Of a DNA stretch of 37,654 nt, positions 1,234 through 37,654 are shown one piece after another. The notes under the pieces were generated by a model. The model was not told the DNA's origin and searched no databases. It saw only the letters and a program-made list of their open reading frames with translations. The position numbers and the translations under genes were made by a program. The DNA is taken from the IMG/VR virus record IMGVR_UViG_2529292719_000024, one strand, 5' to 3'. This DNA is from a virus. Its lineage: Duplodnaviria > Heunggongvirae > Uroviricota > Caudoviricetes. The stretch's first letter is position 1; every line of letters begins with the position of its first letter.

Positions 1234-1806
1234 TTACATTTCAGGTTGCGTTATGACAGTCCCAACAGGGTGGTAGCGGTAGATCGTTGACAGTCCAATA
1301 TCATAGATAATTGCCAGCCGCTTTCTGTCATACCCTTTCTGGAGCAATCTTGCGATCTGCTCATGCTGCTCCTTCGTCAGTTTCGGGCGACGTCCTCCAA
1401 CTCTTCCTTGTGCTCGCGCAGCAGCCAGTCCTGCCAGCGTGCGCTCAACTATCAGTTCACGCTCCATTTCTGCCAGTGCACCCATCATATGAAAAAAGAA
1501 CCTTCCCATCGGAGTGCTGGTATCGATTGAATCCGTCAGACTGCGAAAATTGACACCTTTTGCGCGTAGCTCTTCTGTGAGAGCAATGAGGTGTTTCATT
1601 CTTCTACCCAACCGATCCAGCTTCCAGACCACCAATGTATCCCCTCTTTTAAGGCACTTTAAAGCGCGTTTCAGGCCTGGTCGTTCCGACTTGGTTCCGC
1701 TCATTTTGTCCTCAAAAATCTGTTCACATCCTGCGCACATTAATGCATTGCGTTGCAAATCTGTGTTTTGGTCATTTGTTGACACACGTATGTAGCCAAT
1801 CAGCAT
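1234..1806 (-). CDS. serine DNA invertase (Gin/Pin/Hin family)
   Basis: ATG at 1806 gives MLIGYIRVSTNDQNTDLQRNAL..., the catalytic-serine N-terminus of Gin/Pin-type invertases, with a C-terminal HTH. The ORF track's longer 1935 start adds a non-homologous 43-aa extension. Lies next to inverted repeats flanking tail-fibre cassettes. Confidence 0.9.
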   Translation of the reverse strand: MLIGYIRVSTNDQNTDLQRNALMCAGCEQIFEDKMSGTKSERPGLKRALKCLKRGDTLVVWKLDRLGRRMKHLIALTEELRAKGVNFRSLTDSIDTSTPMGRFFFHMMGALAEMERELIVERTLAGLAAARAQGRVGGRRPKLTKEQHEQIARLLQKGYDRKRLAIIYDIGLSTIYRYHPVGTVITQPEM

Positions 1807-1901
1807 TAAAAATACTCCCTTTTGAGTGGTTAAAGTACTGAGATAATGTGGGGAGGATTTGAGAGATAAACGTTGGTTTAGGAGAAGGCTCGGCGCTACC
1901 C

Positions 1902-2061
1902 GTTGGTGTGCCTGTTCCGTGGCCCACCGCCACACCGCCAGCAGGCTGGTTACAGTGCAACGGAGCTACGTTCACTAAAGAACAATATCCTGTTCTGGCC
2001 AGAGTCTACCCGACCCTCCGTCTTCCCGATTTACGCGGTGAGTTTATCCGTGGATGGGACG
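1902..2061. repeat. left inverted repeat (~160 bp) of the invertible tail-fibre segment
   Basis: Plus-strand 1902-2061 is near-identical to the reverse complement of ~3296-3460; both encode VPVPWPTATPPAGWLQCNGATFTKEQYPVLARVYPTLRLPDLRGEFIRGWDDGRK. Boundaries +/- 5 bp. Confidence 0.85.
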
Positions 2062-2390
2062 ACGGGCGCAAAGTTGATACAGGACGTAAGTTGCTGTCCG
2101 CACAAGGGGCAACGCTGTTAAGAACAGCAATGCTGGATTATTATAACCAGGACACTACGGGAACCTCGGGGATAGTCGGCATGGGATTCAACAATGAAGA
2201 TTCCATTACAGACCTTCGTGAGGGCAGCTTTAAAATGCCGGACGGGACAACATTCAGCGATCCTGTCGTGGCAATGTCAGACAATGGTATGCAGGCTACT
2301 ATTCTGACCTCTATCAGAAGCGGGTATGCGAAGGGTATCACTGTCAGACCCCGTAGCATTGCACTTAATTACATTGTGAGGGCAGTTTAA
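1902..2390 (+). CDS. alternative tail-fibre C-terminal cassette (Sv'-like), promoterless and silent in this orientation
   Basis: Frame opens inside the inverted repeat with the same peptide as the expressed fibre, then diverges into a different 105-aa C-terminus ending IALNYIVRAV (expressed fibre ends IAFNYIVRAA). The track's start is GTG inside the repeat, so it is a fusion cassette, not a stand-alone gene. Confidence 0.7.
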   Translation, partial: VGVPVPWPTATPPAGWLQCNGATFTKEQYPVLARVYPTLRLPDLRGEFIRGWDDGRKVDTGRKLLSAQGATLLRTAMLDYYNQDTTGTSGIVGMGFNNEDSITDLREGSFKMPDGTTFSDPVVAMSDNGMQATILTSIRSGYAKGITVRPRSIALNYIVRAV

Positions 2391-3004
2391 TGAGTAACAC
2401 TGCAGTTCTGGATGAAAACGGTATCGCCACTGTAGCGGGCGAGATCACTGTATATCACTATGACGAGGAAACCCGGGAATACACCTCATCCTCTGTGGAG
2501 TATCTCGCCCTTGGGGTGGGTACTCCGGCACATTCGTGCGCCGATGCACCGCCGGAGGCAATTTCGGGTTACGTGGTTTGCCGGACTGCCACGCTGAACG
2601 GGTGGGAGCATGTGCCTGATCACCGCGGCGAGACGGTATACAGCAAGGAGAACGGTAACCCCGTTCTGATTACCCAACCGGGTGATTACCCGGCGGACAC
2701 CACCACAAAACAGCCGGCCACGCCATGGGATACCTGGAACGGTGAGGCGTGGGTAACCGATACTGAACGGCAGCGAGCCGCAGAACTGGAGGTTGCCAGA
2801 CAGCAACGCCAGCAACGGGTGAAACAGGCGATGGCGTCCGTCGATCTTATCAACCTCAAACTGCGTGCTGGTCGCAGTCTGACACCAGAAGAAACGGCAA
2901 AACTGAACGCCGTGCTGGATTATATCGACGAGCTGAACGCACTGGATATCAGCACGGCACCTGAAATCAGCTGGCCGGAAGCGCCACTGGCACTTGCCAG
3001 CTGA
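2390..3004 (+). CDS. tail fibre assembly protein (Tfa / Mu U-like chaperone)
   Basis: 204 aa; motifs WEHVPDHRGETVY, WNGEAWVTDTE and C-terminal DISTAPEISWPEAP match the lambda Tfa / Mu U pattern; start overlaps the stop of the Sv' cassette. Confidence 0.85.
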   Translation: MSNTAVLDENGIATVAGEITVYHYDEETREYTSSSVEYLALGVGTPAHSCADAPPEAISGYVVCRTATLNGWEHVPDHRGETVYSKENGNPVLITQPGDYPADTTTKQPATPWDTWNGEAWVTDTERQRAAELEVARQQRQQRVKQAMASVDLINLKLRAGRSLTPEETAKLNAVLDYIDELNALDISTAPEISWPEAPLALAS

Positions 3005-3010
3005 ACGGTA

Positions 3011-4609
3011 TCAAGCCGCCCTCACGATATAGTTAAACGCGATATTGCGGGGGCGGGTTATGTTAAAGAATGCTCCGTTTAATTCGGCTTTTGCGCGACT
3101 GTTTGTTCCACCCAGAATTGCGTACCACAAATAATCGCTACGGTAATTCCCCGCAAACACCTTATCGCCGCCATAGTCAATATTATTTCCGTTACTCATG
3201 TACGAGATATCCAGCGAAGAATCGTTATCGTCATGACCGCCGACCAGTGTACCTTTCTGCCATGAAAGCAACTTACGCCCCTCGTCAATCTTGCGCCCGT
3301 CGTCCCATCCACGGATAAACTCACCGCGTAAATCGGGAAGACGGAGGGTCGGGTAGACTCTGGCCAGAACAGGATATTGTTCTTTGGTGAACGTAGCTCC
3401 GTTGCACTGTAACCAGCCTGCTGGCGGTGTGGCGGTGGGCCACGGAACAGGCACACCAACAGGCAATGCAGAGCCTTCCCCCAAACCAAGGTAATTGAGG
3501 ACATCTTTTATACTGCCCTTAGCGATAATAGCGCGACCAATAGCTGTAAGGGTTGCCAGCGCTGCGCGGTCTGCTCCGGTAAAATAAGGCAACCGATCTG
3601 CTGCAGTGGCAAGTCCTGCCAGAGCAGTGAGCGTGGCATCTGCCGGTTGTTTTCCGTTTGCCAGATCGTATGCAGCCTTGACCGCTTTCGGTGTGGCGGC
3701 CAGTATTTCAGACGTGCTGTTGATGGCACTGCTCAATTGTATGGTGCCTTTTGCCGTCAGCGAGGCAGCAGGCACTCCCGTTATCTGACTCCACGGGTGA
3801 GTGTGGCTGACGGGCGCCTTGCCGGCTGCAAGGTCGTATGCAGCCTTGACCGCCTTCGGCGTGGCAGCCTCAGTTTCTGATTGACTGTCCGTGGCGCTGC
3901 TCAGTTGTACGGTGCCTTTTGCCGTCAGCGAGGCAGCAGGCACTCCCGTTATCTGACTCCACGGGTGAGTGTGGCTGACGGGGGCCTTGCCGGCAGCCAG
4001 GTCATATGCAGCCTTGACGGCCTTTGGTGTGGCGGCCAGCGTTTCAGAGGTGCTGTTGGTTGCACTGCTCAGTTGTACGATCCCTTTACGGGTCGTTGTT
4101 GCATCCTGGGCTGTGTATTTTCCCCGGGCCAGATCATACGCGATTTTCACAGCCTTCGGCGTGGCAGCCTCAGTTTCTGATTGACTGTCCGTGGCACTGC
4201 TCAGCTGTACGGTGCCTTTTGCCGTCAGCGAGGCAGCAGGCACTCCCGTTATCTGACTCCACGGGTGAGTGTGACTGACGGGTGCCTTGCCGGCTGCAAG
4301 GTCGTATGCAGCCTTGACGGCTTTTGGTGTGGCGGCCAGCGTTTCAGAGGTGCTGTTGGTGGCACTGCTCAGTTGGGTGAACCCCTTAGCTGTCAGTGTC
4401 GCGTCCGGGTGGTTACGGGAACGTACGTGTTCAGCCAGTGACTGTGCGGCTTCCTCCGTTTTTTTCTTCAGCCATTTCGTCCTGTTTGCCAGTTGCCGGG
4501 GGGCTCGATTTGATATCCCGTCAGCACCACCCAGAACCGGATCTGATGTCTCCAGTTGATAGATATTTTCTTCCCACTTTTCTGTTTCATTCAGGTTTCC
4601 CATAATCAA
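3011..4609 (-). CDS. tail fibre protein (Mu S / lambda Stf-like), constant shaft plus currently fused variable C-terminus
   Basis: 532 aa; repeated phage fibre motif GxxQLSSATxSxSExxAATPKAVKxAYDLA...PVSHTHPWSQITGVP; the C-terminal 147 aa lie inside the invertible segment (inverted repeat plus variable end). Confidence 0.9.
   Translation of the reverse strand: MIMGNLNETEKWEENIYQLETSDPVLGGADGISNRAPRQLANRTKWLKKKTEEAAQSLAEHVRSRNHPDATLTAKGFTQLSSATNSTSETLAATPKAVKAAYDLAAGKAPVSHTHPWSQITGVPAASLTAKGTVQLSSATDSQSETEAATPKAVKIAYDLARGKYTAQDATTTRKGIVQLSSATNSTSETLAATPKAVKAAYDLAAGKAPVSHTHPWSQITGVPAASLTAKGTVQLSSATDSQSETEAATPKAVKAAYDLAAGKAPVSHTHPWSQITGVPAASLTAKGTIQLSSAINSTSEILAATPKAVKAAYDLANGKQPADATLTALAGLATAADRLPYFTGADRAALATLTAIGRAIIAKGSIKDVLNYLGLGEGSALPVGVPVPWPTATPPAGWLQCNGATFTKEQYPVLARVYPTLRLPDLRGEFIRGWDDGRKIDEGRKLLSWQKGTLVGGHDDNDSSLDISYMSNGNNIDYGGDKVFAGNYRSDYLWYAILGGTNSRAKAELNGAFFNITRPRNIAFNYIVRAA
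3296..3460. repeat. right inverted repeat of the invertible tail-fibre segment
   Basis: Reverse complement matches 1902-2061 with 1-2 mismatches; lies inside the tail-fibre coding sequence at the constant/variable junction. Confidence 0.85.
3590..4440. repeat. three tandem ~300-bp coding repeats in the tail-fibre shaft
   Basis: Near-identical blocks at ~3590-3880, 3881-4180 and 4181-4440 (e.g. gtccgtggcgctgctcagttgtacggtgccttttgccgtcagcgaggcagcaggcactcccgttatctgactccacgggtgagtgtg); the same antisense peptide recurs in three plus-strand ORFs. Confidence 0.75.
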
Positions 4610-6280: not shown

Positions 6281-6618
6281 AGCAACTCCTGAGTCCGGGT
6301 CTGTCCGTCTGAGCCTTTCCAGCTCACCCGGAGCGTAAGATGTTCGCCGTCGACGGCGGGTTTAACTGACATAAGCTGGCAGCGGGGCTCCCAGCGTCGG
6401 ATGGCATCGACGGATTCGCGCACCACATGCGGAATGGCCCGGTCTACAGGCCAGTCGATATAAAGATGCAGATTGCTGCCGAACTCCGGGCGATGCGGGT
6501 CGCTGCCGCGGGGAGTCCGCAGGATAATTTGAATCGCCTGCCGGATATCATCCAGCCCCCGGACAATTTCGCCGGGAGCCTGCAGGGTCGGTTGCCAGAA
6601 TACTGAGGTTGTTTTCAT
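6271..6618 (-). CDS. baseplate wedge protein (P2 gpW / T4 gp25-like)
   Basis: 115 aa; size and position between the spike and J-like genes. Confidence 0.7.
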   Translation of the reverse strand: MKTTSVFWQPTLQAPGEIVRGLDDIRQAIQIILRTPRGSDPHRPEFGSNLHLYIDWPVDRAIPHVVRESVDAIRRWEPRCQLMSVKPAVDGEHLTLRVSWKGSDGQTRTQELLWR

Positions 6619-6672
6619 GGGGGCAGTATTGCCCCCGTGCGGGAACGCTGATATTAAAGGCGTTTAAAAAGC

Positions 6673-12966: not shown

Positions 12967-13036
12967 GATTGTGCTCCTGTGTAAGTTCAGGGCAGTATGT
13001 CGGGAGAAGCGCGTGACGGATATTAAAGGAGATTAA

Positions 13037-18880: not shown

Positions 18881-19094
18881 TTTGCTGTCCCGCGTTATGT
18901 TGTCGGAGACAGTTTGTGAGAAATGCAGGCCCGGCGATTTTAATCTGCTTTAGAAAACATCAGGGGAGAAGGACAGGGAAAGCAATGCGGTGAACCGGAG
19001 GCGGTTATAAAACAGAGGCTGTAAAGCCTTTATAAAGGTAATACAGCCCCTCATTCTCTGGCAATGATAAATCACCCGCCTGAAGAGAGAAAAC
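18881..19094 (-). promoter_or_regulatory. 214-bp intergenic region upstream of the protease/scaffold gene (candidate internal late promoter)
   Basis: The only sizeable non-coding gap in the head module, where Mu has its C-dependent PI promoter; contains a small hairpin AGGCT-GTAA-AGCCT (~19016-19029). Confidence 0.3.
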
Positions 19095-26352: not shown

Positions 26353-26482
26353 GTGTGTATCCTCGTTTGGTGGAGACAGCATCACAAATACAGGGCGCAA
26401 AGGATTTTAAAGCGCGTTAAGAGAGCCGGGGATACGGGATGTGCAGGATAAACGATGAATTATTCACAGAGGAGAATACGAT
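26353..26482. promoter_or_regulatory. divergent intergenic region: candidate late-operon promoter and promoter of the P-loop gene
   Basis: 130-bp non-coding gap between divergently oriented genes; no consensus sigma-70 hexamers could be assigned confidently. Confidence 0.3.
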
Positions 26483-26959
26483 ATGACGCACACACTGAAT
26501 CCGGTCATCACTGTCACTGTGTCCGGTCCTGTGGGCAGCGGTAAAAGTTACGTACTGGCGCGGATAGAAGAGATGGTGAAACAGGAACTCGGAAACAGCG
26601 TCATTGTCGATGCTGCTGACGTGGAGAATGAGCGCCGTATGAATGGCGAAGATCTGACGACCTGGCAGAAGCCACGGGGTGGCACAGTGATCAGGCTAGA
26701 GGAATACACGGGACAGGGCCTGTTGTCATACGGCGAGGAGCGTATCTGTCGGACGAATGAGCTGCTGGATGTTATATGCCCCACGGGCCGGCAACCCTGG
26801 ATACTGCCCGATGCACTGCATGCCACCATTGCGGCACTGATGACAGTTTACGATCAGGAGCTGCTCATGAAGGAGTTACGTAAACTCACCGGTCAGCCAA
26901 CAGAATGTTGTTCGTCTCCGAAGTACGGCAAACAGGAAAACGCCCCGGATAATCCTTAA
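26483..26959 (+). CDS. small P-loop NTPase / kinase-like protein, uncharacterised
   Basis: 158 aa; Walker A motif VSGPVGSGKSYVL at residues 13-25; GAGGAG ribosome-binding site 8 nt upstream of the ATG; oriented against all neighbouring phage genes. Confidence 0.6.
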   Translation: MTHTLNPVITVTVSGPVGSGKSYVLARIEEMVKQELGNSVIVDAADVENERRMNGEDLTTWQKPRGGTVIRLEEYTGQGLLSYGEERICRTNELLDVICPTGRQPWILPDALHATIAALMTVYDQELLMKELRKLTGQPTECCSSPKYGKQENAPDNP

Positions 26960-27668: not shown

Positions 27669-28655
27669 CTATTTAAGAATAAAACGGTATTTACTGTCAG
27701 GAGTGCTTTGCTGATCAAGTAGCAGTGAACGACATGGAGCAGTCAAAACCCGAGCATAACTACCATCAGGGCTTATGTTAATGTAACAAACCTTGCCCTT
27801 AACACTATAATTTTCGGGGACGGATGCCTTTGCTGATACAGTAAATTTAAGGGTATGCCAGCCCGTTTTTTGCTTGTAGCTTGAAACCGAATGGAAATCA
27901 TCTGAGTACTTATTTAACCCTGGAAACATGCTGCGCAGTGCGGGGATGGAATCTTCTATTATTTTATCGTTGGTTTTAATGTTAAAAACGCTGGTTTCAG
28001 TAGAAGCTACTGCTTTGGCATTTCCCCATTTACCAGCGAACACAATCATTCCCACGAAAAATATTGCTACAAGAACTAACACTCCCCCCAACACTACTAC
28101 ATGAGGCTTCCGGCTTCTGGTTGGTACAGTTGCGACTGATTTTGCACCGCTTTCCGATGGAGGTGATAGAGTTTTACTCTCATCACGAATATTCAGCAGA
28201 TCATCAAAATAACCAAACACAGCCTGCAACTGCTCTTTGTCTAGGCCTTTAAGATGGGTTGTACCGAAATGCTTCAGACAGTATCTGTCACGGTCAAGAC
28301 GATACCCAGGGTCAGTAAGCGCCATTATTTTGCTGACCAGAAGATTACAGTCCTTCATATTCTGGATCTGTTGTGCATATCTCTGAAGGATCTCAACCGC
28401 ACCATGATAATCAGCCGCAGTCATTTCATTAACTGTTTTGGTATTAAGTTTCGTGTGGATCGTCATCCATAGCTCGCGCTTACTTTCCCCCAGATCAACC
28501 AATTCATCCATCAATCTGTGTAAATCGCGTTTTTGCAGCAACGAAATTGGTTGCTGGGCCGAAGGAAGTATGTCAGCAGAATAGTTATGAATGGTAACAT
28601 CACCGCTGACAACGTTACCCACATCCCCGTTAACTGTTTGCTTCTCTTTACTCAT
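27669..28655 (-). CDS. single-pass membrane protein with a cytoplasmic N-domain and an extracytoplasmic C-domain, uncharacterised
   Basis: 328 aa; start overlaps the repressor stop (ATGA); one transmembrane helix PHVVVLGGVLVLVAIFFVGMIVFAG; N-terminus MSKEKQTVNGDVGNVVSGDVTIHNY mirrors the repressor C-terminus. Confidence 0.65.
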   Translation of the reverse strand: MSKEKQTVNGDVGNVVSGDVTIHNYSADILPSAQQPISLLQKRDLHRLMDELVDLGESKRELWMTIHTKLNTKTVNEMTAADYHGAVEILQRYAQQIQNMKDCNLLVSKIMALTDPGYRLDRDRYCLKHFGTTHLKGLDKEQLQAVFGYFDDLLNIRDESKTLSPPSESGAKSVATVPTRSRKPHVVVLGGVLVLVAIFFVGMIVFAGKWGNAKAVASTETSVFNIKTNDKIIEDSIPALRSMFPGLNKYSDDFHSVSSYKQKTGWHTLKFTVSAKASVPENYSVKGKVCYINISPDGSYARVLTAPCRSLLLDQQSTPDSKYRFILK

Positions 28656-29113
28656 CTTCTCTTGGTATTTTTGTTCATTATTCCACCTGTTCCTATGGTT
28701 ACGTTACCTTTGATAACATTCCCCAGAACATCTCCATGAATAACCTGTTCCGCCCGTTCTCTGGAGGAGCCAGTAGTCAAGGCCGACAAAACTGAACCTT
28801 TGACCTGTAATGGTGCCTGCCGGTAGTGCTGCAGTAACTCCATTTCATCACGTGATAAAGTTATACCTGATGACTCCCCGGTAAGAATGAACTGTACATT
28901 GGCCCCAATTCTTGCAAAGGCTGCAAGTAACTCACCTCCGGGAACAGCAACCCCTCGTTCATATTTCCCCCACATTTCTCTTGAAACGCCACAAAGGGCT
29001 GCTACTTCAGCCTGCTTGAGTGATAACCGCGAACGCTCAGCTTTGAACCGCGACGCGCAAAGAGAATCAAAATTCACATAAACCTCATTGACAATGAGAA
29101 CAATAGTTCTCAT
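28652..29113 (-). CDS. prophage repressor, XRE-type HTH without a LexA-like peptidase domain
   Basis: 153 aa; HTH LKQAEVAALCGVSREMWGKYERG; divergent from the early operon across a 50-bp gap; C-terminus ends HGDVLGNVIKGNVTIGTGG. Confidence 0.8.
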   Translation of the reverse strand: MRTIVLIVNEVYVNFDSLCASRFKAERSRLSLKQAEVAALCGVSREMWGKYERGVAVPGGELLAAFARIGANVQFILTGESSGITLSRDEMELLQHYRQAPLQVKGSVLSALTTGSSRERAEQVIHGDVLGNVIKGNVTIGTGGIMNKNTKRR

Positions 29114-29163: not shown

Positions 29164-29352
29164 ATGACTTCCGAACAAGTTAAAAATCTCTTCCGTCAGC
29201 GTGGTATCACGTTTCCCCGCTGGGCCGAAGAACACGGCTACAGCCGCAATGAGGTCTATCGTGTTCTCAATGGACAGACCAAAGCTCGTTACGGCAAAGC
29301 CCATGAAATTGCCGTAAAACTGGGATTAAAACCCACGTCAAATGCGGCATAA
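29164..29352 (+). CDS. small DNA-binding regulator (Ner/Cro-like)
   Basis: 62 aa, first gene of the early operon, divergent from the repressor; HTH-like segment HGYSRNEVYRVLNGQTKARYG; AAAGGAG ribosome-binding site. Confidence 0.6.
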   Translation: MTSEQVKNLFRQRGITFPRWAEEHGYSRNEVYRVLNGQTKARYGKAHEIAVKLGLKPTSNAA

Positions 29353-29404
29353 ATTTTCCACATATGCAACAGGTTATCACATATTGCAAAAATGGAAATG
29401 TGAC

Positions 29405-29713
29405 ATGAGTAAAGTAAATATTTCCAGTTCTGGGACCCGCATCCTACGTGTACTCAAAGCTCTACGCGGTCATGCTCTGAACGGTGTTTCTAACGGTGAA
29501 CTGGCATCAGCCCTGGGGGAGTCCCCGGCGAATATCAATCGAGCACTTAATACCCTTATTGAAGAGGGACTGGCCATGAAATTAGAGAACGGACGTTTCG
29601 CACCGGGAATCCAGTTACTACAGATCGCCATGGCTCACAGTCACGAGATGGCGCGTGCACAGGATCGTATTAACGAAATCAACCAACGAGTTATTTCAGG
29701 TAGTCGTTTGTAA
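29405..29713 (+). CDS. winged-helix DNA-binding protein, hypothetical
   Basis: Start refined to MSKVNISS; helix-turn-helix-like LNGVSNGELASALGESPANINRALNTLIEEGLA. Confidence 0.45.
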   Translation: MSKVNISSSGTRILRVLKALRGHALNGVSNGELASALGESPANINRALNTLIEEGLAMKLENGRFAPGIQLLQIAMAHSHEMARAQDRINEINQRVISGSRL

Positions 29714-29723
29714 GGAGTAATCA

Positions 29724-30638
29724 ATGGGACGCACCAAATCACCCGTTAACACTGAACTGAATGTTGAGGTTCCGCTGTCAGATAACATCAATGTCAATTT
29801 GAACGCTATGACACAGCATCGCATGGAAATTATGCAGCAGTTTGGTGATGGACTGCCTTATGAACGTGATCGCATTGTTCACGAAGCACGTTTTTATATG
29901 GCGCAGAGTGCTGAATCTATGCTGGAAGCGGGTAAGCGGCTGATCATCTTAAAAGAAAATGAGCCACACGGTGATTTTACAAACATTTTAGAAAATGAAC
30001 TCGGACTTGCACCACAAGTTGCTCGCCGCATGATGCAAGCCAGTATGAAGTTTTTGGGAGAAGGTGATGAGCCAACAAAACGCTCAACGTTGAGCGTTTT
30101 GGGGAAAGCCAAACTGTACGACCTGATGGTTCTGGATAATGAAGAACTTGATGAATTGGCCGACGGCGGCACAGTTGCCGGCCTGACGCTTGACGACGTT
30201 GATCGCATGTCAGTACGTGAATTGCGTCAGGCCCTGCGCGAAGCGCGCGAAACCAACGCAGCACAACAGCGCGTACTCGCTGACAAAAATGAAAAAATAG
30301 ACTCACTCTCCACCAGACTGGAGAAGAAATCCCGTATTCAGCCGCCTGAGCCTGATGAAGAGGTTAAGAAGCTGCGGGCGGAAGTGACAGCATTAGCGGT
30401 TGAGGCGGAATCTGCTATCGCCGTTCGACTGTCCAGCGCTTTTGAGACGCTGTGCGCATATTGTGCTGAAAACATGATTGATACCCCCAGAGACTTCATG
30501 GCAGGCCTGGTCTGTCAACTGGAAAGCACAGCGCGTAGCCTGCGCTCCACATTTGACCTGCCGGATGAGCCAACAGGCAATGCCGCGCCTTCATGGCTGA
30601 CTGAGCCGACGCCACAGATTAACGGGCTGGAGGCATAA
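29724..30638 (+). CDS. hypothetical coiled-coil protein upstream of the transposase
   Basis: 304 aa, acidic and helical; no motif recognised. Confidence 0.55.
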   Translation: MGRTKSPVNTELNVEVPLSDNINVNLNAMTQHRMEIMQQFGDGLPYERDRIVHEARFYMAQSAESMLEAGKRLIILKENEPHGDFTNILENELGLAPQVARRMMQASMKFLGEGDEPTKRSTLSVLGKAKLYDLMVLDNEELDELADGGTVAGLTLDDVDRMSVRELRQALREARETNAAQQRVLADKNEKIDSLSTRLEKKSRIQPPEPDEEVKKLRAEVTALAVEAESAIAVRLSSAFETLCAYCAENMIDTPRDFMAGLVCQLESTARSLRSTFDLPDEPTGNAAPSWLTEPTPQINGLEA

Positions 30639-30641
30639 CCA

Positions 30642-32411
30642 ATGAATGCTGCCCTGACTGAACGACTGGTTTATGTCGCCCGCGCGGCACGTGACGCGGG
30701 GCATGGTAAACGCGGTGCAATATACGACGCTGCCTGTGCTGAACTTGGCATGTCCCGCGCCACTCTGCTGCGCAGGCTGAAGGAGGTCTCTGTGACTGAT
30801 AAACGCAAAAAACGCGCTGATGCCGGACGCAGCGCCCTGACCCGCGACGAAGCCGCGCTGATATCTGCCACACTGCGTGAGGCCACCCGCAAGAACGGTA
30901 AACGCCTCTATTCCATCGCAGATGCAGTGGAAACCCTGCGGGCTAACGGCTTTATCACCGCAGGCAGAACAGATGAAACCACCGGTGAGTTTTTCCCGTT
31001 GTCTGAAGATGCCATCAGCCGTGCTCTGCGTAACTATGGCCTGCACCCGGAACAACTGGATGCTCCTGCACCGCATACCGAAGTGGCCAGTCTGCACCCC
31101 AATCATGTCTGGCAGATTGACGCCTCACTCTGCACGCTTTACTACCTGAGCAATGGACATAAAGGGCTGCAGGTGATGGACAGCGCGAAGTTCTACAAGA
31201 ACAAGCCCGCTAACCTTGCCCGTATCGCCAGTGACCGCGTGTGGAGTTACGAGATTACCGACCATGCCAGCGGCTGGATTTACGTTGAGTATGTGACGGG
31301 CGCGGAATCAGGTGAGAACCTGTGTTCTGTGCTTATCAACGCCATGCAGGAGCGTGGCGGCGCAGACGTGCTGCACGGCGTGCCAAAAATACTCTATCTC
31401 GACCCCGGCTCGGCAAACACCGCGGGTATGACGAAAAACATGTGCCGCTCACTGGGCATCGACCTGATAGCGCACAAGCCGCATAACGCCCGCGCCACCG
31501 GACAGGTGGAAAAGGCGCGGGACATTATCGAACGCAAGCTGGAGCCGGGTCTGAAGTTCCGGCCGGTTCACAGTCTGGAAGAACTCAATGCGCTGGCCGC
31601 GAAATGGCGCAGCCACTTTAACGCCACGGCTGTTCACAGCCGCCACGGTAAAACCCGCACGGATATCTGGCTGAAGATTACTGCTGAGCAGCTGAAAAAA
31701 GCGCCTTCCGTTGAGGTATGTCGTGAACTGGCTGTGGCGGCACCAGAACTCCGCAAAGTCACGCCAAAACTTCGTGTCTCGTTCCGGGGCACTGAATTTG
31801 ACGTATCAACGGTACCGGGCGTACTGGTCGGTGAAAAACTGATGATTACCCGTAACCCGTGGCGCAGCGATGTGGCACAGGTGGTTCTGACCGGTGAGGA
31901 CGGCCACGAGACGTTCTTCCTGGTCGAAGAAGTCAGAAAGAACGAGTTTGGCTTTGCTGAAGGCGCGGCGGTATTTGGCGAAAGTTACAAAGCCCTGCCG
32001 GAAACCCCGGCGCAGATGGCGGCAAAAGAAACCGAAGCGCTGGTCACCGGTACAGACAACGCCGCAGATGCAGCTGCCGCACGCAAGGCGAAGGCGCTGC
32101 CGTTCGGCGGGCGGCTTGACCCATATAAACATATTGATGACGCCACACTTCCGGCCTATATGCCGAAGCGAGGTCAGGCCTCTGACGTACGCGGGCCGCG
32201 CACTGAACAACGTCCCATGACTCATGTGGAGGCCGCGAAAGCCCTGCGCGATAAGTTCAGCGCCGACGGCCTTACCTGGACGCCGGAACATTACCGCCAG
32301 TTAACGGCACAGTATCCGGACGGCGTACCGGAAGCCGCACTGGATGAAGTCATGGCCACGCTGACCACGCCGGCCCGCAGCAGCGTTATCAGCATTGTTA
32401 ACGGCAACTGA
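30642..32411 (+). CDS. Mu-type DDE transposase (A protein)
   Basis: 589 aa; RNase-H-like core with candidate catalytic acidic residues (HVWQIDASLCTLYY, LYLDPGSANTAGM); followed by a B-like ATPase as in transposable phages. Confidence 0.8.
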   Translation: MNAALTERLVYVARAARDAGHGKRGAIYDAACAELGMSRATLLRRLKEVSVTDKRKKRADAGRSALTRDEAALISATLREATRKNGKRLYSIADAVETLRANGFITAGRTDETTGEFFPLSEDAISRALRNYGLHPEQLDAPAPHTEVASLHPNHVWQIDASLCTLYYLSNGHKGLQVMDSAKFYKNKPANLARIASDRVWSYEITDHASGWIYVEYVTGAESGENLCSVLINAMQERGGADVLHGVPKILYLDPGSANTAGMTKNMCRSLGIDLIAHKPHNARATGQVEKARDIIERKLEPGLKFRPVHSLEELNALAAKWRSHFNATAVHSRHGKTRTDIWLKITAEQLKKAPSVEVCRELAVAAPELRKVTPKLRVSFRGTEFDVSTVPGVLVGEKLMITRNPWRSDVAQVVLTGEDGHETFFLVEEVRKNEFGFAEGAAVFGESYKALPETPAQMAAKETEALVTGTDNAADAAAARKAKALPFGGRLDPYKHIDDATLPAYMPKRGQASDVRGPRTEQRPMTHVEAAKALRDKFSADGLTWTPEHYRQLTAQYPDGVPEAALDEVMATLTTPARSSVISIVNGN

Positions 32412-32421
32412 GGAGGGATAC

Positions 32422-33588
32422 ATGCTGGTACTGAAGCAGCAACTGAAAGAGGCCCGTATTCCACAGGCGGTGGTGGCGAGAGCTGTCGATGTTTCTGAGG
32501 CCACGCTGGCCCAGATTGTGAATCATAACGCGTGGCCCCGCACCAGCCCCGGAGAAGTGCGCCGGCGTCTTGCGTCCTGGCTGGAAAGTCAGGGGATTGA
32601 TACAACGAAGAGTTTTGATGCTGTACAGGGCGCGGCCACGCCCCGTACAGCGGGTACCACAGATAAAACGAGCCTCAGTGAGGAAGAGAATATGTTACTC
32701 AAAAAACAGGTGTTATTTCCAGCAACCAAAAAAGCGTTTGGTCTTTTCCGTGACCCGTTCGCCGACGAAGCCATGCAGGGTTCTGATGATGTGTTCACCA
32801 CTCCGGACATTCGCTACGTGCGTGAGGCGCTGTACCAGACAGCCCGTCATGGTGGGTTTATGGCCGTCATCGGTGAGTCCGGTGCGGGTAAATCCACGCT
32901 GCGCCGTGACCTGACTGAACGTATCAACCGCGAGAATGCGCCGGTGATTGTTATCGAGCCATACATCATCGCTATGGAAGACAACGATGTGAAAGGGAAA
33001 ACCCTGAAGGCAGCAGCGATTGCCGAAGCCATTATCAGTACCATCGCACCACTGGAAAGCATCAGACGCAGTCAGGACGCCCGCTTTCGCCAGCTGCATC
33101 GCGTCCTGAAAGACAGCAGCCAGGCGGGGTTCAGCCACGTTCTGGTGATTGAGGAGGCCCACAGTCTGCCCATTCCGACACTGAAACACCTCAAACGCTT
33201 TTTTGAGCTGGAGTCCGGTTTCAAAAAACTGCTGTCCATCGTACTGATTGGCCAGCCGGAACTGGCGACAAAACTGTCTGAACGCAATATGGAAGTCCGT
33301 GAAGTCGTTCAGCGCTGTGAGGTGGTCGAACTTCTGCCTCTGGACAATAACCTTGAAGAGTTTCTGACGTTCAAACTGCAACGGGCCGGTAAACAACTGA
33401 CGGACATTATGGACGCCAGCGCAGTGGATGCCATACGTGCCCGCCTGAGCAATCCGGGAAGTCATCGTAAAAATATGGTCAGCCTGCTGTATCCGCTGGC
33501 CGTCAGTAACCTGGTAATAGCCGCCATGAATCTGGCCGCTGAAATCGGGGTTCCACAGGTCAACGCTGACGTTGTCAAAGGGGTTTAA
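32422..33588 (+). CDS. AAA+ ATPase transposition protein (MuB-like target DNA activator)
   Basis: Start refined to MLVLKQQ (AGGAGGG 5 nt upstream); N-terminal HTH region, Walker A GESGAGKST, Walker B-like VLVIEEAH. Confidence 0.8.
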   Translation: MLVLKQQLKEARIPQAVVARAVDVSEATLAQIVNHNAWPRTSPGEVRRRLASWLESQGIDTTKSFDAVQGAATPRTAGTTDKTSLSEEENMLLKKQVLFPATKKAFGLFRDPFADEAMQGSDDVFTTPDIRYVREALYQTARHGGFMAVIGESGAGKSTLRRDLTERINRENAPVIVIEPYIIAMEDNDVKGKTLKAAAIAEAIISTIAPLESIRRSQDARFRQLHRVLKDSSQAGFSHVLVIEEAHSLPIPTLKHLKRFFELESGFKKLLSIVLIGQPELATKLSERNMEVREVVQRCEVVELLPLDNNLEEFLTFKLQRAGKQLTDIMDASAVDAIRARLSNPGSHRKNMVSLLYPLAVSNLVIAAMNLAAEIGVPQVNADVVKGV

Positions 33589-33590
33589 TA

Positions 33591-33860
33591 ATGAAATCCA
33601 CCACAGGTATCAACCAGCAAATCAGCAAAGTGCAGTCAGCCATTATGGCGCTTAAGGCGACGAACACGGATGTACAAAGCATCACCATCAGGGGTAACAA
33701 ACCTGTCATCCGCGTTTCCCGGAGTGCGCATTGCATGCGCATGCTTGAGCAGGGAAAGGCCTGTTATCTGTATACCGGACATGACCACAGGGGATATTTC
33801 CGTCAGGGCGTTTTCGAACTGCACGGCTGTCGCGTCGTGTGGCCGGAATCTTTGTGGTAA
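33591..33860 (+). CDS. hypothetical small protein (Mu kil-position)
   Basis: 89 aa immediately after the B-like gene; function assigned by position only. Confidence 0.4.
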   Translation: MKSTTGINQQISKVQSAIMALKATNTDVQSITIRGNKPVIRVSRSAHCMRMLEQGKACYLYTGHDHRGYFRQGVFELHGCRVVWPESLW

Positions 33861-33887
33861 TCAGCACAACTGGAGAAATCATAAAAA

Positions 33888-34418
33888 ATGGCAAAAAGTA
33901 CAAAAGGTGCAAAACGTATCAAGGCCGCAGCAGCACTCTGGGTGCCGGGGACACGTGAAGAGGTCATTGAGGGAATCAGACTACTCGGTGACGCACAACG
34001 TGAACTGGTCAGGGCTGAAACAGAAATGAATGACGCCATTGGCGATATCACCGCACGTTATGCCCCGCTCACCGAGAGCCTGAAAAAACGCATGGCCGAA
34101 CTGCAGTCCGGTATTCAGACATGGTGTGAGGCACACCGTGATGAACTGACCGGCAACGGGAAGGTGAAGTTCGCTAACCTCACCACCGGCGAGGTGCAGT
34201 GGCGAAACCGTCCGCCATCAGTCAGTATCCGTGGGGCGGATAATGTTATTGAATTACTGAGACGTCTGGGGCTTGAGCGCTTTATTCGTGTAAAAGAGGA
34301 AATAAATAAAGACGCTATCCTGAATGAAAAAGAGGCCGTGAAAAATATTCCCGGTATTTCCATTAAAAGCGACATTGAGGATTTTTCAATAATTCCTTTT
34401 GAGCAGGATGTGCAGTAA
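33888..34418 (+). CDS. gam: host-nuclease inhibitor protein Gam (Mu Gam / Ku-like)
   Basis: 176 aa; motifs PPSVSIRGADNVIELLRRLGLERFIR and C-terminal EDFSIIPFEQ closely match recalled Mu Gam. Confidence 0.85.
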   Translation: MAKSTKGAKRIKAAAALWVPGTREEVIEGIRLLGDAQRELVRAETEMNDAIGDITARYAPLTESLKKRMAELQSGIQTWCEAHRDELTGNGKVKFANLTTGEVQWRNRPPSVSIRGADNVIELLRRLGLERFIRVKEEINKDAILNEKEAVKNIPGISIKSDIEDFSIIPFEQDVQ

Positions 34419-34452
34419 ACACACCACGTTAATTATTTAATAAAAACATTTT

Positions 34453-34485
34453 CTTTTTTATTCCGGCGTCAGCGCCGCGGGCTTC
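34453..34485 (+). other. stable GC-rich hairpin inside the early operon
   Basis: CCGGCGT(C)CAG...CTG(C)ACGCCGG: 7+3 bp stem with a 12-nt loop, preceded by an AT-rich tract, in the 97-bp gap after gam. Confidence 0.4.
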
Positions 34486-34515
34486 TGCACGCCGGAAACA
34501 GAGGAGAATTAAATC

Positions 34516-34710
34516 ATGATATTTAAATGTATTCAGTGCGAGAGGGATATAACAGCCCTGCGTTTTCACAGCGCCATCGCCGTGATGTCCGGTAAATACC
34601 ACATCCCTGCGGTACGCGTCACCCTGGTCTGCCCGTACTGCAGCCAGCATTTTTCGGCAGACGTGCCCGTCATGGAATTCTCCCGCCCTGACAGGGAGGA
34701 CTCGCAATGA
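34516..34710 (+). CDS. small zinc-ribbon protein (two CxxC pairs)
   Basis: 64 aa with CIQCER...CPYCSQ; GAGGAG ribosome-binding site upstream. Confidence 0.5.
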   Translation: MIFKCIQCERDITALRFHSAIAVMSGKYHIPAVRVTLVCPYCSQHFSADVPVMEFSRPDREDSQ

Positions 34711-34979
34711 TTACCCCACAGGAAGCACGACAGCGCACCCGAACCCTTGTTGAACACTATGTCAACGAGTGTGAATGCCGCGACCTCACCGATGTGAAGC
34801 ACGTCCTGACGGCGCTAATCAGCATGACCGCTCAGGCCATTGTGGCGACCAACGGAAAGGCGGCTGCCCTGCAGGTACTGGTGAACACACTCACCCACAC
34901 GGCAGAGCATGAGGTGCCGTACCGGATGGAAACCACTGCAGAAGGCGGCCTGCACATCACCGTCAGCCGGAAGCACTGA
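34707..34979 (+). CDS. hypothetical protein
   Basis: 90-aa ORF, start overlaps the preceding stop. Confidence 0.45.
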   Translation: MITPQEARQRTRTLVEHYVNECECRDLTDVKHVLTALISMTAQAIVATNGKAAALQVLVNTLTHTAEHEVPYRMETTAEGGLHITVSRKH

Positions 34980-34988
34980 GGGCGCGGC

Positions 34989-35285
34989 ATGACACGGAAC
35001 ACCATACTCACCCGCACCGCCCTCTACCGTCTGGCCCTGCAGCGTTTCGGGCCGGACGCACAGGCCCTGAAACTGACAGAAGAGGCCGCTGAACTGGCGG
35101 CCAGTGCTGCCCGCAATCTGAACGGACAGGGCAGCGAAAGTGACCTCGCGGCAGAGCTGGCAGACGTGGAAATCATGACAGAGCAATTGCGCCTTCAGGG
35201 GATGGACCGGCTGATTGACTTCCACAAACAGAAAAAACTGGAACGTCTGGCTGCACGACTGGGCGTGATTTACACGAACGAGTAA
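34989..35285 (+). CDS. possible MazG-like nucleotide pyrophosphohydrolase
   Basis: 98 aa; EExxE (LTEEAAELAA) and E-x-x-D (AAELADVEIM) motifs at the spacing seen in small MazG-type proteins; tentative. Confidence 0.35.
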   Translation: MTRNTILTRTALYRLALQRFGPDAQALKLTEEAAELAASAARNLNGQGSESDLAAELADVEIMTEQLRLQGMDRLIDFHKQKKLERLAARLGVIYTNE

Positions 35286-35299
35286 CCGGGAGGCATTCA

Positions 35300-35515
35300 A
35301 TGGCTGACATACTCAGGGAAATCACCGCATGGACACTGATTCTTACTGGCCTGGCGACATGCCTCAGTGCGGGGGCAGCCCTGGCTGCCCTGCTGATGCA
35401 CATAACAACACAGTGGTTATGGGAAAAGCTTAAAGCAGCATACAGCCTGAAAGAGCTGTCCGACGCTGTCCGGGCATGGAAACGGCAGAAAAATACCGGA
35501 GATACAGAACAATGA
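35300..35515 (+). CDS. small membrane protein
   Basis: 71 aa with one hydrophobic helix WTLILTGLATCLSAGAALAALLM. Confidence 0.4.
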   Translation: MADILREITAWTLILTGLATCLSAGAALAALLMHITTQWLWEKLKAAYSLKELSDAVRAWKRQKNTGDTEQ

Positions 35516-36195
35516 CAGACCAGAATAAACACATTGAGAAACTGAAAAAGTTGCTGGCGCTGGCCGCATCCGGCAACCCGCACGAGGCCGCTCTGGCACT
35601 GCGCCGAGCCCGTAAACTGATGGATGTTCACGGCATCACACATTCCGACATTGCTATGAGTGATATTGATGAAACCATCAGTCATTACTGGCCGACAGGC
35701 AGTCTCCGTCCACCGCGCTACATGCTGGGCCTGATGAACATCATCCGCGAGGCATTTGGTGTTAACTCCATCATTCACCCCGGCACGCATCCGTCTGTGG
35801 GGTTCTACGGTAACCGGGAACGAGCGGCACTGGCTGCGTACACCTGGGAAGTGCTGGTCCGCCAACTGAAAAAGGCGCGTCAGCAGTATATCAGCGCACA
35901 GAACAAAAGAATAAAAAACGCCACCCGTACCAGCCGTGGAAACCAGTTTGCTGAAGGCTGGGTACTGGCCGTTATCAGTGAAATACAGTCCTTTGCCCTG
36001 ACCGATGATGAGCGTGAACTGATGCAACAGTGGCTGGAACATAAATACCCGCAAACGCAAACCACCAGGGCGCGTAAACCGGGAAGAAGCCGCAATGGCG
36101 ACGCCTCGCGCTATGCGGGGTTTCGTGAAGGGCAGAACGTCAGACTGCACCGCCCGGTCAGTGGGCAGGAACAACAGAAACTGGAGGCCAGATGA
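35512..36195 (+). CDS. phage early protein with a DUF2786-like N-terminal motif
   Basis: Start refined to MTDQNKHIEKLKKLLALAASGNPHEAALALRRARKLMDVHGIT; basic C-terminal region. Confidence 0.5.
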   Translation: MTDQNKHIEKLKKLLALAASGNPHEAALALRRARKLMDVHGITHSDIAMSDIDETISHYWPTGSLRPPRYMLGLMNIIREAFGVNSIIHPGTHPSVGFYGNRERAALAAYTWEVLVRQLKKARQQYISAQNKRIKNATRTSRGNQFAEGWVLAVISEIQSFALTDDERELMQQWLEHKYPQTQTTRARKPGRSRNGDASRYAGFREGQNVRLHRPVSGQEQQKLEAR

Positions 36196-36422
36196 TTACG
36201 CTATCAGGTAACAGCCGGAAATTAAAAGCCTGCCGAATATCTGCCAGATACCTTTTTGCCCGCGCCTTTTTTAAGAACGTCAGGCCGGGGATCACAATTG
36301 GTGTTATTGCCGGACGCGAACAGGTTGAAAAATACATGTCAGGTGCATGGTGGAATAACGACCCTGTCATTGCTGCCCGTAATATTCATATCAGTTGGGG
36401 GGATATTCAGAATGACGGCTGA
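36192..36422 (+). CDS. hypothetical small protein
   Basis: 76-aa ORF coupled to its neighbours by overlapping start and stop. Confidence 0.35.
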   Translation: MITLSGNSRKLKACRISARYLFARAFFKNVRPGITIGVIAGREQVEKYMSGAWWNNDPVIAARNIHISWGDIQNDG

Positions 36423-36627
36423 ATCTGTTGTATGTGCCCTGTTCTGGTATTGTTTTGTCGGTTGGTGTACTGCTGAACTGCCCCGCCGTTCAGGGTTTTA
36501 TTCACGTTACAGTGGTGCCGGCTACTGGATTAGCTGGTCGGTGATATTCCTGTGCTGGCCTGTGGCGCTTCCTTTATATGTCGATTATATCGGTGGCGCA
36601 GGTAAAAGGAGCAACGATGATGACTAA
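36412..36627 (+). CDS. small two-helix membrane protein
   Basis: Internal ATG at 36412; hydrophobic helices VVCALFWYCFVGWCTAEL and WISWSVIFLCWPVALPLYV. Confidence 0.35.
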   Translation: MTAESVVCALFWYCFVGWCTAELPRRSGFYSRYSGAGYWISWSVIFLCWPVALPLYVDYIGGAGKRSNDDD

Positions 36628-37069
36628 ACAACGTCTTATCCAGCTCATTCATATTGCCCGTAATGAACTGGGTATGGATGAAGACACCTACCGCCAGATG
36701 TTACAGGGGCTGACCGGTAAAGCCTCAACCAAAGGAATGGATACCACACAACTAAACTGCGTGCTGGAATCCATGAAAAGGAAAGGCTTTCGCGTTAAGC
36801 CTGCCGGAAAAGCCAGCTCCGGTTTACCGCTGGATAACCATCCGCAGTCCAGGAAAATCCGTGCGCTATGGCTTGAAATGGCTGCTGCCGGCATTGTTCG
36901 TGACCGTTCAGAAAATGCATTAGCGCGGTGGATCAAGCGGGAAACGGGCATCAGCGCCCTGCGCTGGCTCAATACTGAACAGGCAAGCAGTGTTATTGAG
37001 AAACTGAAGAAGTGGCAGCACAGAGCTGCGGGAGTAAAACATGAGCGACCTGAATCAGTTTCGAAGTAA
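36617..37069 (+). CDS. GemA-like protein (Mu gp16 family)
   Basis: Start refined to MMTKQRLIQLIHIARNELGMDEDTYRQML (AAAGGAG upstream); position just before the Mor-like gene as in Mu. Confidence 0.65.
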   Translation: MMTKQRLIQLIHIARNELGMDEDTYRQMLQGLTGKASTKGMDTTQLNCVLESMKRKGFRVKPAGKASSGLPLDNHPQSRKIRALWLEMAAAGIVRDRSENALARWIKRETGISALRWLNTEQASSVIEKLKKWQHRAAGVKHERPESVSK

Positions 37070-37241
37070 AGGGCCGGAACTCCTGGTGGAACTGGCACAG
37101 CATACCTCTGAGACCGTTCGCGAGATTATTGATATTGAGCCCGCAATTGCCGACCAGATTGGTCAGGCCGTCGCGAACCGCATGATGCAGGTCTGGGGCG
37201 GGCAAAACGTTTATTTCCCGATGGGCATGGTATGGAAGTAA
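37041..37241 (+). pseudogene. Mor/C-family transcription activator, C-terminally truncated by IS66 insertion
   Basis: 66-aa ORF; LLVELAQ...VWGGQNVYFP resembles the Mor N-terminal region (recalled HLGGGQVYIP); the C-terminal DNA-binding part is missing, and the stop codon TAA is formed by the first bases of the IS end (aaG TAA GCG). Confidence 0.65.
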
Positions 37242-37654
37242 GCGACTCGTCAGAACCGTATTGATATTTACTGAGAGCTCAGATCAACTTTCCAGGGCAA
37301 CAGATCGCGTACCCGGTTTGCCGGCCAGTCCTGGATATGTTCAATGACGTAACGCAGCCACTTTTCTGACTCCACATTGTTCAGACGGCATGTGCCGATC
37401 AGCGAGTACAACACCGCCGCATGTTCACCACCGCTGTCGGAACCCGCGAACATCCAGTTTTTCCGGCCTACGGCCACTCCCCGTAAGGCGTTCTCTGCGA
37501 TGTTGTTGTCGATTTCCACCCAGCCATTACTGCAGTACACGTTCAGTGCATCCCACTGTTTCAGCAGGTATGCGAACGCTTTTGCCGTATCTGAGTGACG
37601 CGACAGTGTTTTCATCTGTTGCTGTATCCAGTCATACAGTGACTGCATCAGTGG
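37238..37654 (-). mobile_element. IS66-family insertion sequence, terminal 0.4 kb (continues beyond window)
   Basis: Terminal sequence GTAAGCGACTCGTCAGAACCG at 37238, then an ORF whose C-terminus matches the IS66 TnpC pattern ([26 protein letters not shown]...LPWKVDL). Confidence 0.75.
37268..37654 (-). CDS. IS66-family transposase (TnpC-like), C-terminal part; 5' end outside window
   Basis: 126-aa C-terminal translation with recalled IS66 transposase motifs; the frame is open to the window edge. Confidence 0.75.

Follow-up and report, generated by a model that had tools for sequence, protein, structure and literature searches.

How does a transposable prophage fare when an insertion sequence (IS) has entered the gene for its activator and its structural genes remain in place? 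The question is raised by one end of a 37,654-nucleotide stretch of DNA, here called the window, where an open reading frame (ORF) resembling the Mor activator breaks off at the terminus of an IS66-family element. The reading that we favor, and consider very probable, is that an ISCro1-like IS lies in mor, the sole Mor/C activator gene of a BcepMu-like prophage in yegX, that the helix-turn-helix (HTH) domain has been lost, and that the late genes are presumably silent.

RESULTS

The window carries a BcepMu-like transposable prophage in yegX

Comparison with relatives placed the prophage at positions 1156 to 37237, up to the IS, with a left end that reads TGATGCGCC.... The relatives match from 1156 on; bases 1 to 1155 come from the host and occur in 5,425 of 5,426 complete E. 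coli genomes. This host segment contains yegW (1 to 747) and, on the minus strand, the 3' part of yegX (799 to 1155), the host gene that the prophage interrupts. The late genes for lysis, head, and tail occupy the minus strand from about 1237 to 27578 and encode an invertase, tail fibres, a P2-like baseplate and tail, a Mu-like head, terminase, an SLT endolysin, and a holin. A repressor region (27672 to 29113) separates them from the early operon on the plus strand (29164 to 37237), which contains the genes for an rve transposase, an ExeA/MuB-like ATPase, Gam, GemA, and Mor, with a DUF2786 gene between Gam and GemA.

The single early operon, with its rve transposase, ExeA/MuB-like AAA+ protein, Gam, GemA, and Mor, and the divergent repressor are as found in BcepMu-like phages. 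So are variable insertion sites, short target duplications, and TG...CA ends, with the right end and the duplication read in relatives. The same prophage family was found at different sites, in yegX (window), ygcP (strain 025542-1, L012), csiE (strain 504838, L001), and others, and the prophage of strain 025542-1 is flanked by a 6-bp target duplication, GATAGC. The prophage begins TGATGCG... and finishes ...TCTAATCA; this right end (...CTCAAGTCTAATCA / ...TCTAATCA) was read in three relatives that differ in their flanks, ∼160 bp past the mor stop codon. The nearest deposited phage genomes are those of Escherichia phage PhiKM, Phi06_2974 B, and Klebsiella phage KP12. PhiKM shows 97.9% DNA identity over 90% of a 24-kb query and has an intact Mor that is 97.7% identical.

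The mor gene is interrupted by the end of an IS66-family element

The mor gene closes the early operon and is preceded by gemA, an order shared with the prophage of strain 025542-1, BcepMu, and KP12. The gemA gene (GemA, a homologue of Mu gp16; 36620 to 37066, plus strand) overlaps the start of mor by 26 bp. ORF analysis, alignment, and Pfam together identified the truncated Mor/C-family activator gene at 37041 to 37241 on the plus strand. Its product (MSDLNQFRSK...PMGMVWK) is 66 aa long, and all 66 residues are identical to residues 1 to 66 of an intact 129-aa Mor-family protein, WP_001281695.1, that is found in many E. coli genomes. The fragment matched the Pfam Mor family (PF08765) at 62.9 bits, against a cutoff of 24.9, over profile positions 1 to 57 of 107; the intact 129-aa allele scored 147.8 bits over profile positions 1 to 107.

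A three-way DNA alignment showed where the likeness to intact mor copies ends, at 37237/37238. All copies are identical through ...GGTATGGAA(G), beyond which the window reads TAAGCGACTCG... / TAAGCGACTCGTCAG... and the intact copies read GTCAGTCAGCG... / GTCAGTCAGCGCGACC...; the intact Mor protein continues past the break as VSQRDREIFREFNGRNHHELARKFGVSLQWVYSVVKRVRKEE.... The breakpoint is uncertain by 1 base, since G37238 can be assigned to either partner. In agreement with the alignment, a megablast search of positions 36400 to 37654 against 5,426 complete E. coli genomes returned many matches of 99.5 to 99.8% identity, every one of which ends at query base 839, that is, at window position 37238. 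The annotation at these matches gives a "gp16 family protein" followed by the 129-aa "Mor transcription activator family protein," WP_001281695.1. Translation of the truncated gene stops at a TAA (37239 to 37241) that lies within GTAAGCG and is provided by the IS terminus, so that the 66-aa product has no foreign tail and all of its residues are native.

The sequence that follows, 37238 to 37654, is the terminal 417 bp of an ISCro1-like element of the IS66 family, with an inverted repeat that starts GTAAGCGACTCG (GTAAGCG) at 37238. The terminus GTAAGCGACTCGTCAG... coincides exactly with the end of the annotated ISCro1 copy of strain 504838 (L001, 7245 to 9943; 2,699 bp), which has tnpA, tnpB, and tnpC and an 8-bp duplication, CATTTCCC, on both sides. 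The IS bases of the window differ from that copy at 1 position in 417. Positions 37268 to 37654 on the minus strand encode the C-terminal 128 codons of TnpC, the IS66-type DDE transposase, transcribed toward mor; these residues matched DDE_Tnp_IS66 (PF03050; E value, 3.1e-24) and DDE_Tnp_IS66_C (PF13817; E value, 1.6e-15). Because CATTTCCC abuts GTAAGCG in the copy of strain 504838, the 8-bp target site in the window is predicted to be GTATGGAA, at 37230 to 37237. The first-pass annotation, made from the letters of the window, had described a Mor-like ORF cut after 66 aa by an IS66 end at 37238, and these comparisons confirmed that observation to the base, along with the family assignment of the IS.

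The break precedes the DNA-binding domain of Mor

A recent preprint gives the layout of the Mor/C family as a dimerisation domain, a β-linker, and a DNA-binding domain (bioRxiv 10.1101/2025.05.02.651988). A phmmer search of PDB sequences retrieved Mu Mor (1RR7; E value, 1.1e-9) and Mu C (9L0X, also 9VW8; E value, 3.7e-9), and alignment to 1RR7 placed the break just past the conserved GGxxVYxPxG of the β-linker. The 66-aa product thus retains the acidic dimerisation domain and the β-strand linker (GGQNVYFPMG) and has none of the HTH DNA-binding domain; in the intact protein, the HTH-type Pfam matches (HTH_23, HTH_29, Sigma70_r4, and KORA) are all at residues 66 to 110. The DNA-binding C terminus has therefore been removed, as had been proposed, and the window copy does not have the complete architecture of dimerisation domain, β-linker, and HTH. 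By descent, the gene is a member of PF08765; judged from the domains that remain, its product would not be a functional member.

Mor is the only comparable gene cut, and no second Mor/C gene was found

The intactness of the remaining genes was assessed by comparing the 53 annotated coding sequences of the intact prophage of strain 025542-1 with the stop-to-stop ORFs of the window. Full-length counterparts were present for 48 of the 53 (95.6 to 100% identity), and the tail-fibre gene was also full length, at 65% identity. Three genes had no close counterpart because they lie in an invertible tail-fibre segment (about 1888 to 3293) that carries different alleles. Mor alone was cut (66 of 129 residues), and the other 49 comparable genes were all full length, which bears out the earlier statement that the structural genes are intact.

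Searches for another activator in the window were negative. A phmmer search (--max) with intact Mor against all six-frame ORFs of at least 25 codons returned no Mor/C gene other than the truncated one, and Pfam revealed no second PF08765 member among 31 regulators and small or hypothetical window proteins. A weak BLASTP match to Mor in an antisense ORF within the ATPase gene (32592 to 32813; E value, 0.005 in a tiny database) was attributed to chance, as the ORF gave no Pfam Mor match. Intact relatives, KP12, and BcepMu likewise have a single Mor/C gene each, the last before the phage end; in the intact relatives, ∼160 bp and nothing else separates mor from that end. The first-pass annotation had seen no other intact Mor/C gene, and the searches and the single-copy arrangement of the relatives agree with it. 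A PADLOC scan of four unassigned window proteins gave nothing convincing.

Four late-gene junctions share a candidate promoter element

The late strand has eight intergenic gaps longer than 40 bp, and in four of the eight a two-part motif, YTAA-N6-TTAAWATC-N20-AWRCTG, is found at the same spacing. The motif combines a dyad, TTAA-N6-TTAA, with a −10-like hexamer and has no −35 element. The four candidate late promoters, all on the minus strand, lie upstream of the holin, lysis, and head genes (26377 to 26420; TTAA-N6-TTAAAATC-N20-ATGCTG), the head protease/scaffold and capsid genes (18910 to 18953; CTAA-N6-TTAAAATC-N20-AAACTG), the tail-assembly and tape-measure cluster (12993 to 13036; TTAA-N6-TTAATATC-N20-ATACTG), and the baseplate W gene (6624 to 6667; TTAA-N6-TTAATATC-N20-ATACTG). 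The annotated ATG of the W gene is only 6 nt past the −10-like hexamer. With one mismatch allowed, the window contained no further match; the motif was built from its own four sites, so that counts within the window are circular and do not constitute an independent test.

Independent support for the motif comes from its recurrence in KP12 and BcepMu. In KP12 (about 86% DNA identity), each of the four corresponding intergenic gaps has retained the dyad and the −10-like hexamer, and the spacer between the two has diverged. In BcepMu, which has no DNA-level similarity to the window, the holin and protease genes are each preceded by TAAAGCCGATTAAAAGAC and the W gene by TAGCCGGCTTTAATATCC, and gp41 has a weaker form of the motif in front of it; the rest of the BcepMu genome gave no match.

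With xAWRCT taken as the −10 element, the dyad center falls near −42.5 to −43.5. At the Mu promoter Pm, the Mor dimer is reported to bind a 16-bp dyad centered at −43.5 (PMC4390567), and Mor is described as "absolutely required" for Pm (PMC4287176). The four C-dependent late promoters of Mu are described as having a −10 element and lacking a −35 element (PMC2582627). A dyad near −43 with a −10 and no −35 is thus the layout of the Mor/C-dependent promoters of Mu, and this supports a block of late expression. We infer, with good support, that late expression is blocked by the loss of Mor and that a single Mor/C-type activator turns on four late operons in this phage group. TTAA-N6-TTAA would be the predicted operator of that activator in BcepMu-like phages. 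Within the literature collection searched, there was no earlier description of late promoters in BcepMu-like phages.

The interrupted allele is shared by a small clonal group

The window matches, base for base, the last 10.6 kb of contig AQDD01000055.1 (GCA_000355475.2), a contig that runs 1 base past the end of the window. At least three NCBI draft assemblies share the junction between mor and the IS, and about a dozen additional places resemble it; over 10.2 kb of flanking phage DNA, the three assemblies differ from the window at 0, 3, and 7 bases. Recurrence of the same junction in at least three assemblies that differ by single-nucleotide polymorphisms (SNPs) indicates a real transposition junction rather than an assembly chimera. 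Neither this junction nor the one between yegX and the phage occurs in any of the 5,426 complete RefSeq E. coli genomes. The 66-aa Mor is present on 21 contigs, a few of which are unrelated contig breaks; each contig with the protein ends inside the IS or is such a break. The allele is not confined to one isolate and has been passed down in a small clonal group, comprising at least three assemblies and about 17 contigs.

What lies beyond the IS was approached through the other side of the insertion in yegX. A 156-aa YegX fragment was predicted by joining an intact yegX to the right end of the phage across a 6-bp duplication (GAAATC); it ends ...DFSQGDF, with a stop codon from the phage right end. 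Exactly this fragment is in the public collection (EMV58087.1 and EMV58572.1, "E. coli 2872000"; 20 contigs), and the version built with a 5-bp duplication is absent from it. Its link to the genomes with the interrupted mor consists of the contig counts and of accession proximity: EMV58568.1, the 66-aa Mor, precedes EMV58572.1, the YegX fragment, by four numbers, a gap that fits three IS66 genes lying between the two. The fusion of the YegX fragment to the phage right end implies that this end still adjoins yegX in the lineage, which speaks against an IS-mediated deletion and, on these sequence comparisons, argues for a simple insertion. No match to either predicted junction was obtained in exact-pattern scans of JGI metagenome contigs, GTDB representative genomes, and IMG/VR.

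Two other leads were set aside. C-terminal Mor fragments considered as partner contigs (P0012 and P0017) come from other insertion sites, and P0012 is another mor allele as well. Contig ends at ...GGTATGGAAGG had the appearance of a hot spot; partial Mor proteins of 57 to 89 aa are equally common, which means that assemblies break throughout mor and that there is no hot spot.

DISCUSSION

The events at this locus can be reconstructed as follows. An ISCro1-like IS66-family element would have inserted by transposition at codon 66 of mor, with which the early operon ends, leaving the dimerisation domain and the β-linker and separating off the HTH DNA-binding domain. Four Mor-dependent promoters would drive the operons for lysis, head, tail, and baseplate, which lie on the strand opposite to the early operon; without a DNA-binding Mor, these promoters would stay silent. 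Upon derepression, such a prophage would express its early genes and probably transpose, and it would make neither lysis proteins nor virions. The 3' part of mor and the phage right end probably lie just beyond the IS; a simple insertion predicts a far junction that reads ...GAGCCGGTTAC, then GTATGGAA, then GGTCAGTCAGCG..., with the 3' part of mor running from GGTCAGTCAGCG. Most likely, then, the prophage is unable to make virions. It had been suggested that both middle and late gene expression are crippled. The late block is the part of this suggestion that our analysis supports; a separate middle step drops out, since this type of phage has one Mor/C activator.

The inactivation had also been called recent and due to a single hit. 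That no second lesion is present, with 49 other genes full length, sustains the single hit and is consistent with an evolutionarily recent event; inheritance of the allele within a lineage tempers "recent."

Three other accounts of the locus must be weighed. The window ends inside a multicopy repeat at a draft contig end, where a chimeric assembly could join mor to an unrelated IS copy. We give this almost no credence, because the join coincides with the outermost nucleotide of the IS inverted repeat, with 1 nt shared, recurs in at least three assemblies with SNP differences in the flanking phage DNA, and yields a protein with a RefSeq nonredundant accession number, WP_001705213.1. A more serious alternative is that the IS mediated a rearrangement, such as an adjacent deletion or inversion, so that the 3' part of mor, and possibly the right end, is gone or displaced; the prophage would then have more than one defect and would also be unable to transpose. 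The visible evidence covers one IS end only, and in strain 504838 a prophage of the same family has the same IS, in the same orientation, 51 bp beyond its right end; a deletion starting from an IS so placed would give this kind of Mor-IS junction. However, the prophage of strain 504838 is in csiE and that of the window in yegX, and the exact protein joining the 5' part of yegX to the phage right end exists, on a similar number of contigs and under an accession number neighboring that of the truncated Mor. We therefore regard a rearrangement as unlikely.

Finally, the insertion could be real and have little effect, if Mor were supplied in trans by a co-resident prophage, if the promoters were Mor independent, or if another regulator stepped in. 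Mor alleles with identical central regions do occur in different Mu-like prophages of E. coli, and draft assemblies often break inside mor at many positions, as expected with two related copies per genome. These breaks suggest that co-resident related prophages are common in E. coli, and a related prophage elsewhere in the same genome could provide Mor in trans. Against this, the four conserved late sites show no sigma-70 −35 element, the single-activator layout has been kept from E. coli to Burkholderia, and Mu Mor is, as noted, indispensable at Pm (PMC4287176). Escape from the effects of the insertion thus seems improbable to us, slightly more so than a rearrangement. The size of the IS adds a further obstacle. 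Mu packages its DNA by a headful mechanism, and by analogy the extra 2.7 kb would burden packaging and may prevent viable phage even with Mor in trans.

We return to the insertion into mor as the preferred reading and to what it implies. The prophage should be scored as defective in its lineage: probably immune, possibly transposing, and unable to bring about lysis or release virions. Automated tools would call it "intact," as every structural gene is present, and the case shows how a single regulatory lesion can disable a prophage that is otherwise complete. In itself, this is a real but ordinary prophage inactivation; ISCro1, the Mor/C family, and BcepMu-like prophages have all been described already. 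Two points are out of the ordinary. The first is a set of candidate late promoters, with a candidate operator, for BcepMu-like phages: the element TTAA-N6-TTAAWATC-N20-AWRCTG, a reusable by-product of this work, marks the same four gene junctions in the window and in KP12, and three to four of these in BcepMu, and provides a testable operator. The second is a speculative interference by the retained dimerisation domain. The 66-aa fragment could conceivably be dominant negative and poison Mor dimers or tetramers made by superinfecting or co-resident BcepMu-like phages, an idea to which we assign a very low probability. If it were true, the fragment would make a lethal prophage a harmless, mildly protective passenger, which could help explain the persistence of the allele.

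Comparison with known systems

The IS of the window is closest to the ISCro1 copy of strain 504838, with which it is 99.8% identical; that copy is complete, whereas the window shows one end and 128 codons of tnpC. A precedent for the disruption of a single prophage gene by an IS is nu1::IS of prophage Sp4 in E. coli O157 Sakai, reported in a study that also states that "defective" prophages can retain some activities (PMC2669165). That retained activity calls for caution in equating a single defect with complete inactivity. In both Sp4 and the present case, an IS has knocked out one essential phage function and left the prophage otherwise recognizable; the gene hit is a lambdoid packaging gene in Sp4, in contrast to the late-gene activator of a transposable phage here.

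The activators of Mu, Mor (1RR7 and 9L0Y) and C (9L0X and 9VW8), belong to the same family, PF08765, and the intact allele has the same length of 129 aa. Both share with it the acidic dimerisation domain, the GGxxVYxPxG β-linker, and the basic HTH domain. As in the window, mor of Mu comes after gemA, where the early operon ends, and the candidate target promoters of the window resemble those of Mu in layout. The relatedness to Mu Mor is detectable only at an E value of 1e-9, however, and Mu uses a two-step cascade from Mor to C, whereas the phage of the window has one family member. The window gene, moreover, is truncated and without the DNA-binding domain, and its operator, TTAA-N6-TTAA, is a prediction made here.

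PhiKM (97.9% DNA identity) and KP12 are closer relatives than BcepMu. BcepMu gp01, the "late transcriptional activator," shares 54% amino acid identity with Mor over 91% of the protein. The BcepMu gene order is a mirror image of that in the window, running from Mor and GemA through further early genes to the ExeA-like ATPase, the rve transposase, and the repressor, and then to the holin, the SLT endolysin, the head genes, and the P2-like tail genes; the early part is syntenic with gp01 to gp17. Mor is the terminal gene there as well, a few hundred bp from the genome end. BcepMu differs in its Burkholderia host, in having no DNA-level similarity, and in its intact Mor gene, and it has the intergenic motif at the same holin, protease, and W junctions.

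Candidate late promoters

Four intergenic gaps on the late strand of the window share a bipartite motif, YTAA-N6-TTAAWATC-N20-AWRCTG, whose spacing is the same at each site (minus strand; 26377-26420, 18910-18953, 12993-13036, and 6624-6667). The motif recurs in Klebsiella phage KP12, in gaps at the same gene junctions, and a variant form occurs at such junctions in Burkholderia phage BcepMu (positions 11486, 18813, and 30775). We propose the motif as a candidate operator plus −10 element of activator-dependent late promoters; no account of it turned up in the literature that was available to search. At the baseplate W site (window 6618-6630), the annotated ATG lies just 6 nt past a −10-like hexamer (AATACTGCCCCCATG), and the same close arrangement is present in KP12 and in BcepMu (30810-30825). 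This leaves two readings: a leaderless W mRNA, or an error in assigning the W start codon or the promoter.

Alleles and breaks in mor

A great many contigs from draft genomes and metagenomes break off or start inside mor, the gene for the Mor/C-family late activator, at varied break codons (L006-L011, L013-L023, and members of protein clusters), and the partial Mor products from such contigs range from 49 to 119 aa. These breaks fit a conserved central segment of mor that is repeated among coresident Mu-like prophages. Downstream of a second mor allele, with the C terminus ...EEISRLQGQLFEDDDEPDDDRD, two additional genes (80 and 207 aa) precede the phage end. A heavily deleted relative of the window prophage (L027; ENA ERZ28585818 scaffold_1274), which keeps fragments of portal and Gam together with SLT, encodes a Mor of 110 aa in which 26 unrelated residues stand in place of the first 45. 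This relative is an example of later-stage decay in the same phage family.

Insertions and variation around the prophage

In strain 504838, an independent ISCro1 copy (within L001 7192-9951) lies in csiE, 51 bp beyond the right end of a prophage of the same family, in the same orientation as the copy in the window and with an 8-bp duplication. ISCro1 has thus inserted twice, separately, within ∼450 bp of the right end of this phage family in unrelated strains, which may reflect coincidence or target preference. The window prophage breaks yegX, a host GH25 muramidase gene (junction region, window 799-1155 and 1156-1203), and the lineage therefore carries a yegX knockout as well; the 156-aa N-terminal YegX fragment is annotated as GenBank EMV58572.1. 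Within 1237-3293, a Gin-like DNA invertase gene (1237-1806) adjoins an invertible tail-fiber segment. At 1888-3293, the allele or its orientation is not that of the strain 025542-1 prophage, which is 98.8% identical elsewhere, and the tail-fiber proteins of the two share just 65% identity.

An inter-operon gene

A P-loop NTPase gene that looks moron-like (26483-26956, plus strand; 158 aa; PGAP name, "ABC transporter ATPase") has the late promoter region on one side and, on the other, the late-strand gene upstream of it; the NTPase gene is on the strand opposite to both. PADLOC returned only marginal matches for its product (SngB and mad8; E of about 0.01). At a comparable inter-operon position, KP12 carries a Dam methylase gene.
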